From: Candidatus Heimdallarchaeum endolithica
Lineage (GTDB): Archaea > Asgardarchaeota > Heimdallarchaeia > Heimdallarchaeales > Heimdallarchaeaceae
Reading direction: 5' to 3'
DNA: 64,000 nt
Assembly: GCA_021513715.1 (NCBI GenBank)
Contig: CP084167.1
Coordinates: 1,536,001 to 1,600,000, forward strand
Part shown: positions 32,525-36,431 of the stretch, piece after piece
Layout of the letters: the number at the start of each line of letters is the position of its first letter
Position numbering within the stretch: the stretch's first letter is position 1
Made by a program: the position numbers and the translations under genes
The notes under the pieces: model-generated
The model's input: the letters and a program-made list of their open reading frames with translations, nothing else
Database searches by the model: none
Told to the model about the DNA's origin: nothing

Positions 32525-32783
32525 TCTTTCTATGCCAAATTACTAAAAAAGATTATAAACAAACTGATTTAAGTCAAAATAACGAGATATTTATTCATTG
32601 TAAAACCTCACTCAAGAAATGGTGAAGTAAAAAAAATGGGCATTAGTAGAAGAAGAAATTAAAAGAAGAGATCTAGATTACCAAGTGCAGCTTACGAAAA
32701 AAAGAAGGCATGCTTCTATTTTTTACGTAATTTACAGCTGTTGAGGAAGAAGGAGGAAAAAGAGAAGAGAGGAAGGAGAGGGG

Positions 32784-32791
32784 TTTTTATA
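32784..32791 (+). promoter_or_regulatory. Probable TATA box for tnpB
   Basis: TTTTTATA embedded in a polypurine tract ~60 nt upstream of the ATG. Confidence 0.4.
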
Positions 32792-32853
32792 GGGAAAAAA
32801 AGTAAAATAAAAAGAGAAGAAGAAAAAATAAAACAGAAAGAGGAAGGAAAAAA

Positions 32854-34314
32854 ATGGTGGAGGACGTCGTCAAAACCTTGAAAGTGAGAATAAAGAAGGA
32901 GGTATTGACGACGAGGAAGAAGGAAAGGCTAAGGCGAATAACGGGGAGAGACACGAGGATAATAGAGAAGTATGTGAGAATAATACATCATAACAGAAGA
33001 AAAATATGTACTAAAACTAAAAAAGGGAAAATAAGAGTGCATAGAGGAAAATTAGATGAACTGACACTAACTACTTCAAAAGTTAAAGAAGAAGAGAGAA
33101 GAACAACTGTTCCTCACGATCTGAAGAAAATGTTCCCTTATTGTTCTCACAATGAATTCCAAGAGTGTAGAGATATAGCCGTACAATTATATGAACAAGG
33201 GTATAGACCCAGTCCTACTCGTCCTCCAATAAAGAGAGCAAGAAGACAATTAATTAACAAAAAGAGGTTCATTCTCGTTCATCTGCCAAAAGAGAAGAAT
33301 AACACTCTCACTCGTTGGTGGGTGGGGATAAGAGACTCGTTAGATACGTGGAAAAGAAACACTCCTTATCATCAGAAACTATGGTTACCTTTAGAGATGA
33401 GCACTTTCCACCAGAAGGAATTGAAGAAAGGGAGAATAAAAAGTCTAGAACTAAGATATAGACATTCTACACGTGAGTGGTGGGTATATTTCCAACTGAG
33501 AGTTCTTCCTCCTTCTTTTTATCTCACAAGTCAAGGAGATAATTCTTCTTCTCTTCCCCCAGCTGTGCTGGGAATAGATCTAGGTATAAACATTCTTGCT
33601 ACAGGAGTGTTACTGACCCCTAAAAAGAAGTTAACAAACAAAGAGATAAAGTTTTGGTATACCAAACAGTGGAATAGAGTCAATCATAGATATAAACTTA
33701 AACTTTCCCGTCTTCAGAGGAAAGGGGATTTAAATGACCAGTCGGGTAAAAAACACCAACTTTACCGTTTTCTCGGTCTTCTCCGAAGAAGATATAGAAA
33801 CGTTAAACAAGCATATATTCACCAATTTATAAACGATGTTGTGCAGACGATAGAGACCTATGCACGAAGGTATGACCTATTCGTCGTTGTAGGTTACCCT
33901 AAACACATTCGAGAGGAGAAAGAAAAAGGAAAAGGTAAAAGTAGTCGTAAGTTTCGTAGAAAACTTCACCAGTGGAATTTTTTTCTTATTCTTGCTCTTC
34001 TCCGTCGGGCATTGATATTAAGCGGTTTTGAACCTCACCGAATATTAACGATAGAGGAAAAAGGGACATCTTCTCACTGTGCTCGTTGTGGGAGGAAAGT
34101 TATCCGTCCAGTAAGAGGTTTAGTGCATTGCCCCTCTTGCGATTACACTTTCCACTCTGACCTCACAGGAGCAATGAATATCGCTCGTAAGTTCCTTGGT
34201 TCTCTTTTTCGTCCTCGAGGAACTACTATTACTGATTACCTCACTGGTTATAGATACAGTTCTACCCATTTCACCGTTTGTCGAGGGCTCAGCCATTGGT
34301 TGCAGCCCCAGTAG
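32854..34314 (+). CDS. tnpB: TnpB-family RNA-guided endonuclease with rearranged RuvC-II
   Basis: RuvC-I LGIDLG; VVVGYP in place of canonical E; EEKGTSSHCARC...CPSC Zn finger; RuvC-III HSDLTGAMNIA. Confidence 0.9.
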   Translation: MVEDVVKTLKVRIKKEVLTTRKKERLRRITGRDTRIIEKYVRIIHHNRRKICTKTKKGKIRVHRGKLDELTLTTSKVKEEERRTTVPHDLKKMFPYCSHNEFQECRDIAVQLYEQGYRPSPTRPPIKRARRQLINKKRFILVHLPKEKNNTLTRWWVGIRDSLDTWKRNTPYHQKLWLPLEMSTFHQKELKKGRIKSLELRYRHSTREWWVYFQLRVLPPSFYLTSQGDNSSSLPPAVLGIDLGINILATGVLLTPKKKLTNKEIKFWYTKQWNRVNHRYKLKLSRLQRKGDLNDQSGKKHQLYRFLGLLRRRYRNVKQAYIHQFINDVVQTIETYARRYDLFVVVGYPKHIREEKEKGKGKSSRKFRRKLHQWNFFLILALLRRALILSGFEPHRILTIEEKGTSSHCARCGRKVIRPVRGLVHCPSCDYTFHSDLTGAMNIARKFLGSLFRPRGTTITDYLTGYRYSSTHFTVCRGLSHWLQPQ

Positions 34315-34558
34315 ACAAAAAGGAAAGCACTAATTCTCTCCTCTTGTGTTAGAGTTAGTTCTTTCTTTTTTGTCTCTCGTGGAGTGAAGAAAAGAGTTTT
34401 TAGTTCTTTTCTTCTTTATGATTCCCACGATTCGTGTATGCTGTCTGTCTCAACCCCTTCATAGCATTGTATGGCTTGGTTGAGTTCAAGAGATTAAACT
34501 TTTACTTATTTTTCTCTTGCAAGACTGAGTGCGAAAAACTTTACGTAAAAAAGTAAAT
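34315..34558 (+). ncRNA. Putative omegaRNA (reRNA) scaffold of the TnpB element
   Basis: Non-coding right end with three stem-loops: 34329-34359; 34377-34430 (includes perfect GAAGAAAAGA/TCTTTTCTTC); 34449-34484 (CTCAACC/GGTTGAG). Confidence 0.6.
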
Positions 34559-35448
34559 CATGCAACAGAAATAACAAAAGACAATATTAAGGATTTTGAT
34601 GTTTTTGTTTCTTGTGGTGAAGATGGAACAGTTAATGGAATTATAAATGGTTTAGCTGAAACAGATAAAACTCTTGGGATACTACCCATAGGTAACGGAA
34701 ATGATTACGCGACCTTACTTAGCGTTAAAGGATCATATATTCAAGCTCTTAATATTCTTGAAGAAAATAAAAAAACAGAATTAAACCTTGGGTTTGCTAT
34801 CGCTGACACAAAACACTATTTTGCAAACATAGCAGAAACAGGAATCACTTCAGTAATCGCTAAAGCTTCATATACTGAATTAAAATGGATAAAAGGATTA
34901 CCAAAGTATTATATTCTTGGATTAAAAAAAATTTCCAGCTATAAACCTATTCAAGCTCACATCAGAGTTGATAATTATGAAAGAAAAACAAAACTAATTG
35001 TTTGTGCTATTGGCCTTGGTTATCGTTTTGGAGGAGGATTTAACGTTTTACCTGGAAATAAACCCTATTTTGGAGACTTTCAAGTTTGTATTGCTGGTGA
35101 TGTACCAAAATGGAAATGGTACTGGATGATCAACAAAATAAAAAATGGTACACATGGGGATATTAAAGGAGTGAATTTTGTAAGAGGAAAAAAAATCGAA
35201 ATAGAAACTGAAAAACAATTACCTATTGAAGGAGAAGGAGAAGTATTTAGCGAAAATTCAACTAAAGCAACATTTGAGTTATCACAATCAAAGTTAAAAA
35301 TTATTGTTGGAAAAGAATTCTTAAAAAACAAGATTGAATTTGAAACAAGAAACAAAAAGTAATATAACAGAAATTTTGATTTCTTAATAAACTTTATTTT
35401 TTTAAAAATGGTTAATATAATCAATAATATCTTTCTGAGGAAAATCTA

Positions 35449-35963: not shown

Positions 35964-36431
35964 ATGCACGTTGGATTCATTATCCGAGAATTAACAGAAG
36001 AAGAGATTAACCATAAGTGTCTATATGTTTTTGAAAGGGACAGAATACTTTTTCCAAATGTAGGAATTCTTTTTTTTGTCGAATCATATGAAGAAACCTA
36101 TGGAGTAAGAATAGATCAAGAAGGGTTTCTTAGAGGGCTAGAAACATGGTTCTCAAAGTATCCTCACAACCCGGGCGACACAATAATCATAGCTAAAACA
36201 GCTGAAAGTTTTTCTTTAAGTAGTTCTTCTGAACTCATTCAACAAATTATTGGAGAAACATACGAAAAAGTTCGTGTCGATGAAATGGATGAAAAATCTG
36301 AATCATGCCCAAATTGTCAATATCAATTAGAAAGGGCGGCGAAAAAGGAAGATCGTACCATTTTCAAGTGTGCTCGTTGTGGGTTTACTATGGTTAGAAG
36401 AATAAAAGATAATGAAAGTAAAGAGAACTAA
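35964..36431 (+). CDS. B3/pseudobarrel-like domain + C-terminal Zn ribbon, paralog 2
   Basis: FIIRELTEEEI...LYV...LFP...GLETWF...PGDTIII; CPNC...CARC. Confidence 0.6.
   Translation: MHVGFIIRELTEEEINHKCLYVFERDRILFPNVGILFFVESYEETYGVRIDQEGFLRGLETWFSKYPHNPGDTIIIAKTAESFSLSSSSELIQQIIGETYEKVRVDEMDEKSESCPNCQYQLERAAKKEDRTIFKCARCGFTMVRRIKDNESKEN

Follow-up and report, generated by a model that had tools for sequence, protein, structure and literature searches.

A TnpB-only transposon family of Heimdallarchaeum with terminal inverted repeats around an AT core, possibly mobilized in trans by IS607-like exchange

Elements carrying the RNA-guided nuclease TnpB are thought to rely on two types of transposase, Y1 and serine, and to copy the target motifs of these enzymes. 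In the IS607 family the ends and the targets share one dinucleotide (GG), which leaves one GG at each junction and no other duplication (PMC6188088), and these junctions have been read as serine exchange over a 2-bp core via a double-stranded circle (PMC6188088; 10.1101/2023.11.20.567912; PMC10711439). TnpBs within inverted-repeat transposons and repeat-flanked, Asgard-specific TnpB groups have also been described (PMC10691335). Here we analyze a TnpB element of about 1.85 kb from Candidatus (Ca.) Heimdallarchaeum endolithica, whose inverted ends enclose the TnpB gene alone. It lies in a 64,000-nt stretch of the closed 3.33-Mb genome (30.8% G+C), hereafter the window, to which coordinates refer unless stated otherwise. 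With a probability of about one half, we consider it to be a non-autonomous TnpB-only double-stranded DNA transposon of an Asgard-specific family, moved in trans by IS607-like serine exchange over a 2-bp core. Transposase families of this organism are counted in Wu et al. 2022 (PMC8813620), without an analysis of these ends.

Homology among 12 full copies present in the genome begins and ends at the borders of a 1848-bp element proper, reading G...C on the forward strand (32712–34559). Sequence and repeat finder place its left terminal inverted repeat (TIR), GCTTCTATTTTTTACGTAA, at 32712–32730 and its right TIR, TTACGTAAAAAAGTAAATC, at 34541–34559, both given on the forward strand. The inverted repeat reported by the finder is 23 nt long and 83% complementary (32708–32730/34541–34563) and contains the 12-mer TTTTTTACGTAA (32719–32730) as well as its reverse complement (34541–34552), each separated by 6 nt from a CATG. 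A second, weaker copy of a TTTAC-type motif follows the left TIR at 32731–32740, and CATGC is present at both junctions (32709–32713 and 34559–34563). The sole real open reading frame (ORF) inside the element is an intact forward-strand tnpB of 486 codons (32854–34314), and no transposase gene is found among the ORFs of 32712–34559. The first-pass annotation of this DNA had reported the CATGC at both junctions, the exactly inverse 12-mers 6 nt from CATG and the lack of an encoded transposase, all of which stand. Since no transposase is encoded in it, the element must be moved in trans, as that annotation had also proposed.

The element interrupts a YegS/diacylglycerol-kinase-like gene (Pfam), of which an intact 310-aa orthologue exists in the sister species Ca. 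Heimdallarchaeum aukensis (L094:1368–2300). Alignment to this orthologue delimits a decayed 5' piece at 32582–32711 and a 3' piece at 34560–35362 that matches Pfam DAGK_cat and YegS_C, both on the forward strand. When the element and one CATG are removed, the kinase aligns without gap across the junction (GGCATGCAAC versus GACACGCAAC), and the earlier claim that the interrupted gene sets the boundaries is thereby upheld; at the insertion position the empty H. aukensis orthologue reads AC. With its start codon lost (ACG at 32582–32584 where ATG is expected), an A-run shortened by 2 nt after 32628 and GGDG changed to GEDG (GAA at 34619–34621), the kinase gene is, judging by its sequence, a decaying pseudogene.

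The nature of the repeated junction letters was resolved by comparison with empty sites. For six insertions in H. aukensis an orthologous site exists in H. endolithica, and five of these sites are readable as empty: gaaCATAgctg corresponds to the occupied gaaCATG[...]AAATCATAgctg, ataaATGttta to ataaATG[ACTTAC...]AAATCATGtcca and tgcATAatct to tgcATG[...]AAATCATAatct. The single AT of the empty site is present on either side of the insert, and the junctions share nothing else. Where occupied sites show CATG...CATA, AATG...CATG and CATG...CATA, their empty counterparts have CATA, ATG and ATA, which assigns the left G and the right C to the element. On this basis the shared dinucleotide of the window copy lies at 32710–32711 on the left (flanking base C at 32709) and at 34560–34561 on the right (flanking base G at 34562). 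The outer C and G of CATG are thus target preference and not duplication, and the fifth letter of CATGC is a coincidence of this copy. The reading frame of the kinase, and that of a Y1 tnpA gene interrupted elsewhere in the genome, are each restored on removal of the insert together with one AT. The first-pass annotation had taken CATG as the duplicated core and had proposed to look in the flanks of all copies for either a fixed core or variable target-site duplications; the core is indeed fixed, but it is AT, and CATG does not hold as such. As a control, an insertion sequence (IS) of this genome with an integrase-type (rve) transposase duplicates 6 bp of variable sequence; the fixed AT is therefore peculiar to the elements studied here. 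A Helitron-like insertion between A and T is ruled out, as AT lies on both sides and is not split.

A target logo was built from 39 left and 49 right ends. The flanking base beside AT is C at 36 of the 39 left ends; at the right ends, read inward, it is C in 34/49 (G on the top strand) or T in 11/49 (top-strand A). The outermost base of the element is G in 35/39 left ends and, again read inward, in all 49 right ends. The target is therefore a palindrome, C-AT-G, with both flanks constrained. The ends differ at position -2, where T is found at only 2/39 left ends (P=1.5e-5) and is not depleted on the right (18/49). Left junctions accordingly read VCAT, with T nearly excluded, and the right end's own sequence reads TCAT. 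These two observations point indirectly to a CAT-containing TnpB motif and to a guide starting just past the right end, and they suggest that a VCAT motif would distinguish empty sites from self. The same logic would apply as in the Clostridium IS607 IStron, where the TnpB motif TGGG is the transposase target and the element's own right end, TCGG, escapes self-cleavage (10.1101/2023.11.20.567912).

The encoded protein carries a Cas12f1-like TNB zinc-ribbon domain (Pfam). An AlphaFold model based on 51 relatives reached a mean predicted local distance difference test score (pLDDT) of 83.8, and its best fold matches are Cas12f, TnpB (ISFba1 and ISDra2) and Fanzor2. D242, E402 and D436 are invariant in the 51 relatives. 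The position of the canonical RuvC-II glutamate reads GY, and the catalytic glutamate may have been relocated, the invariant E402 replacing the RuvC-II position. With its predicted RuvC fold, its acidic residues and its TNB zinc ribbon, the modeled protein has the hallmarks of a TnpB/OMEGA nuclease. The last ~300 nt of the element and the right core (34232–34561, forward strand), which overlap the end of tnpB and span the right inverted repeat, display conserved stems with variable loops in a consensus fold of 24 copies; seven pairs have compensatory changes, most of which reflect the split into two subfamilies. We infer that this structured region is a candidate guide-RNA (omegaRNA) scaffold. 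Neither the element nor a related gene-less family described below has a match in Rfam, and a group I intron or IStron was rejected on these grounds. An archaeal bulge-helix-bulge intron was discarded as well, the pairing of the ends having symmetric mismatches and not staggered 3-nt bulges, and the ends of the subfamily termed B below pairing almost perfectly.

All 12 full copies in the H. endolithica genome, which also holds fragments, have the same junctions, and 10 copies in H. aukensis PM71, whose TnpBs are the nearest relatives of the one studied here, have the same ends, a recurrence that excludes chance. The inverted ends that the first-pass annotation expected to be missing from other copies, should its proposal be wrong, are thus found throughout. 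Within H. endolithica the copies fall into two subfamilies, A and B, with 89–100% and ~80% identity to the window copy. The TIRs of the family are 22–37 nt long and are true inverted repeats up to their tips; in subfamily B the repeat reaches ~37 nt and includes two tandem TTTTGCG-type motifs. Tandem end motifs such as TTTTGCGTAA-TTTTGCGAAC, or TTTTCCCCAC twice, occur although the ends remain true inverted repeats. A chimeric copy (L006, genome 3321689–3323549) combines a subfamily-A left end with a subfamily-B right end, which weakens the idea of a strict covariation of the two ends: either they need not match exactly or copies have recombined. The H. aukensis copies are 82–90% identical in DNA to the window copy, and flanking DNA is 83–97% identical between the two species. 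Since insertion sites differ between them, the family was active around or after the species split. An 8-nt palindrome inside the left repeat (32735–32742) reads ACAGCTGT, ACAGTTGT or ACAATTGT across copies and is palindromic in two of these three forms.

The same end plan extends beyond this family. The motif TTTTTACGTAA is strongly over-represented in the genome and marks a gene-less family of ~380 nt with at least 16 copies (for example L031:1881–2264, corresponding to genome 925509–925892 on the minus strand, and genome 1840193–1840568). Its ends, CATGAGATACTTTTTTACGTAAAAAA ... GAAATTACGTAAAATTTCAACTCATG, follow the design CATG-N6-TTTTTTACGTAA; its body contains a GC-rich internal hairpin and bears no resemblance in sequence to the TnpB elements. 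The end plan recurs, with other inner motifs such as CATG-N6-TTTTTTGTACAA and ATGGTTTACTTTTTCCGAAA, in at least four more TnpB families of the genome. In another genus, relatives with 45%-identical TnpBs carry CATG-N5-TTTTCCCCACTTTYCCCAC at both ends and are accompanied by matching 340-bp mini-elements. Distant Thor-type relatives have seemingly asymmetric ends and possibly AT at both junctions, a weak observation made on three copies.

Y1, serine, Cas1, integrase-type and DDE proteins served as queries against 117 loci (877 kb) holding relatives from genomes, metagenomes and viral contigs. Matches were found only next to distant TnpBs (≤29% identity) and never next to the clade itself, and no Y1, serine, IS630-type or Cas1 gene adjoins any of the ~75 related loci. 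Clustering of neighboring ORFs revealed no recurrent neighbor gene for the Heimdall-type elements, only a giant ORF beside the Thor-type relatives. No IS607-type MerR-serine transposase is present in G000 or G027, and the IS630-type domain DDE_3 (PF13358) has no match in the three carrier genomes G000, G027 and G004. Cas1 genes occur at three other places of the genome, none beside a tnpB copy, and the clade loci contain no Cas1 match. The H. endolithica genome encodes two serine recombinases of 249 and 277 aa with a faint match to the ISC1926 TnpA; homologues of both, of similar length, exist in 20/21 genomes of the archaeal family. True IS607 elements of ~2.75 kb are present in sister genera (L076, L077, L078, L081–L083, L086 and L088), with a MerR-serine TnpA of 196–199 aa followed by an unusually long TnpB of 622–652 aa. 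An autonomous copy with the same ends, which the first-pass annotation suggested looking for, was not recovered: whole-genome motif scans found only the known short families, genome self-comparison only conventional IS elements of the DDE and integrase (rve) types, whose ends differ, and a TIR scan of G004 and G158 only 1.76-kb TnpB elements and the 340-bp mini-elements. Abutted ends resembling a circle junction were not found in the genome either, one apparent match being due to chance.

From these comparisons we infer a double-stranded DNA intermediate, serine-type chemistry, and a guide RNA with its motif. Each end is built from a G at its tip, then a 6-nt spacer, a run of T and a short motif that is palindromic or repeated, and because the ends are inverted repeats of the same make-up, one protein could bind both. 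Insertion takes place at AT, usually in C-AT-G, so that AT then stands on both sides of the element. A serine-type transposase, encoded elsewhere or lost, would carry out exchange over AT, giving rise to an excised circle with its ends abutted around AT and to a scarless donor site. The guide RNA would be transcribed from the 3' end of the element through the right repeat into the flank. TnpB would then cut the emptied site via the VCAT motif, sparing the occupied site, which reads TCAT, and repair of the cut site from a sister copy would restore the element.

The number of copies, the AT core, the target logo, the depletion of T at the left ends only, the IS607 precedent, the shared end design, the lack of hairpins, the paired 3' structure with the TnpB fold, and the control IS count in favor of such a process. 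With the IS607 family (IS607, IS1535, ISC1926, the Clostridium IStron and ISXfa1) the element shares a fixed dinucleotide that flanks the insert on either side, stands once in the empty site and is the only duplicated sequence, short motifs repeated within the ends, a putative guide RNA accompanying tnpB at the right end, and a presumed target motif that is one base off the element's own right end. It differs in that AT takes the place of GG as the core, that its ends form true inverted repeats of 22–37 nt and that no serine transposase lies in or near any copy; the long TnpBs of the sister-genera IS607 elements are, moreover, only remotely related to the TnpB studied here. The element therefore looks IS607-like in its junction logic and like a TIR carrier in its ends. 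Given that the dinucleotide exchange of IS607 (PMC6188088) and inverted-repeat as well as Asgard TnpB groups (PMC10691335) were already known, the first-pass suggestion of an undescribed TnpB-carrier family was overstated.

Several observations weigh against IS607-like exchange, and we favor it only moderately. IS607 elements have been described without TIRs and with GG, and a palindromic AT core would not tell a serine recombinase in which direction to act. A DDE cut-and-paste enzyme would account equally well for long symmetric ends combined with a fixed 2-bp duplication. None of the ~75 loci contains or adjoins a serine transposase or another known one, and the enzyme may have been lost. 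Each of the two serine recombinases of the genome is present as one copy, does not follow the MerR-first arrangement of domains seen in IS607 transposases and has no matching sites in its vicinity, and the ends of the sister-genera IS607 elements are built on a repeated CTTGCCA motif unrelated to the ends described here. Additionally, recent activity is not indicated, as the genome contains no identical copies and the one closest to the window copy is 92% identical.

Among the alternatives, a DDE cut-and-paste transposase encoded elsewhere deserves the most attention, even if we judge it rather unlikely. With a 2-bp stagger at C^AT^G it would generate a true AT target-site duplication, comparable to those of Tc1/mariner-IS630 elements (TA) and of the eukaryotic Fanzor carriers. 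The true TIRs of 22–37 nt with two tandem subsites per end, and the palindromic target with both flanks constrained, speak for such an enzyme; furthermore, TnpBs are known inside DDE elements with inverted ends (PMC10691335), and Fanzor elements with TIRs and short fixed duplications joining the guide RNA have been reported (PMC10711439). The resemblance to IS630-linked TnpBs (PMC10691335) and to Fanzor1 and Fanzor2* (PMC3627910, PMC10711439) includes the symmetric ends, the short fixed duplication, the many nuclease-only, non-autonomous copies and the probable inclusion of repeat and duplication in the guide RNA scaffold. However, the dinucleotide is AT and not TA, the elements reside in an archaeon and have no known DDE partner, and DDE_3 was not found in the three carrier genomes, while the resident DDE IS families have other ends and make 6-bp duplications. 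Excision footprints were not observed, though the available data would not be expected to reveal any. The Thor-type relatives, with seemingly asymmetric ends but AT at both junctions, would also fit poorly, albeit on the weak observation mentioned above. An enzyme not yet recognized as a transposase, whether an Asgard Cas1 variant, a host recombinase or a virus or plasmid protein, appears improbable to us, although the failure to link any known transposase to the element in two closed genomes or at the ~75 loci would be explained by it. Asgard TnpB groups linked to Cas1 variants have been described (Cas1H-Asgard-1 and -2, PMC10691335); they share with the present family an Asgard-specific TnpB clade and loci flanked by repeats, and the Thor-type (Thorarchaeota-like) relatives carry the GTTCACTC motif mentioned in that work. 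The conservation of the two serine recombinases would be compatible with a host enzyme. On the other hand, the element lacks the GTTCACTC motif, and neither it nor its close relatives have an adjacent Cas1. Serine recombinases are entirely absent from many Thor carriers, and no positive pointer leads to any particular protein. Casposase-type integration leaves duplications of about 14–15 bp, not 2 bp.

Two further explanations can be set aside with more assurance. TnpB-only elements are usually classed in the IS1341 group of the IS200/IS605 family, and single-stranded movement by a Y1 TnpA acting in trans, with insertion 3' of CAT and a right end that is also CAT, would formally agree with the junctions (as [G...CAT] inserted after (C)AT); a Y1 tnpA-tnpB element does exist in the genome, and the TnpB-only content, the multiple copies and a presumed guide RNA region at the 3' end are common to both. 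Yet the first-pass view that these ends are not of the IS200/IS605 kind is confirmed, since folding the DNA of each end, on either strand, revealed no stable subterminal hairpin (z-scores -0.9 to +0.2) and the inverted repeats reach the tips. The one classical IS605 of the genome has two ends unrelated to those of the TnpB element, each with a clear GC-rich hairpin, and its tnpA, the only Y1 gene of the genome, is split at codon 3 by a ~380-nt gene-less element of the same superfamily (ATG CCA T/CG GGA). H. aukensis has no Y1 gene despite its 10 copies, and none stands beside the clade loci, where an adjacent Y1 TnpA with hairpin ends would have spoken against the first-pass proposal. Insertion 3' of a left motif would leave the right flank free, but this base is G or A in 45/49 cases. 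No orientation bias was detected along the GC-skew arms, a weak test as the replichores are uncertain. We consequently regard an IS1341-type member as very improbable. Even less credence can be given to a literal 4–5-bp CATG(C) core or duplication, as at the att site of a tyrosine or large serine recombinase. Most copies do show CATG at both junctions, but in several the fourth letter differs between left and right, the right one matching the empty site and the left one the element, and some left junctions begin without C (AATG or GATG); the empty sites rule out a core of this type.

A broader proposal would unite unrelated TnpB lineages and guide-only mini-elements, all with one end design and one AT core, in a distinct, Asgard-wide class of RNA-guided-nuclease transposons served by an unrecognized, possibly host-encoded recombinase; we consider this unlikely. 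If true, it would represent a prokaryotic counterpart of the eukaryotic Fanzor carriers with their TIRs and short duplications, in the archaeal lineage closest to eukaryotes. The inverted repeats around an AT core shared by a large and diverse set of Asgard TnpBs are in any case a third end design, next to those of the Y1 and serine elements. Identifying the missing enzyme would add a partner to TnpB and explain the spread of non-autonomous, nuclease-only elements, and it might show the origin of Fanzor-type arrangements, whose guide RNA incorporates repeat and duplication. Both the VCAT motif predicted here and the nuclease, compact at 486 aa, lend themselves to direct testing.

Some minor observations concern the relatives and surroundings of the element. 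In the Thor-type relatives (~35% identical TnpB), a protein of at least 1500 aa begins ~280 nt upstream of tnpB on the opposite strand. It was found at 28 loci (L063, L064, L066, L067, L071, L105–L139 and others), its copies are 24–38% identical, and it has neither a Pfam or Atlas match nor a homologue in the H. endolithica genome. In two genomes a Thor-type tnpB lies immediately upstream of the gene for RNA polymerase subunit B (L063 in G088 and L069 in G177), which suggests that this position is conserved and does not stem from a recent insertion. In the window, a 155-aa ORF (35964–36431) located ~1.7 kb downstream of the element has a weak, sub-threshold match to the TnpB zinc ribbon at 36270–36398 (21 bits, E ~1e-3) that is probably just a zinc ribbon. 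Finally, the integrase-type (rve) IS cited above as a control for its variable 6-bp duplications is abundant; it measures ~1 kb, has inverted ends starting AAGCATGTCC and occupies genome positions 208366–209357 and 219982–220973 and ~30 more.

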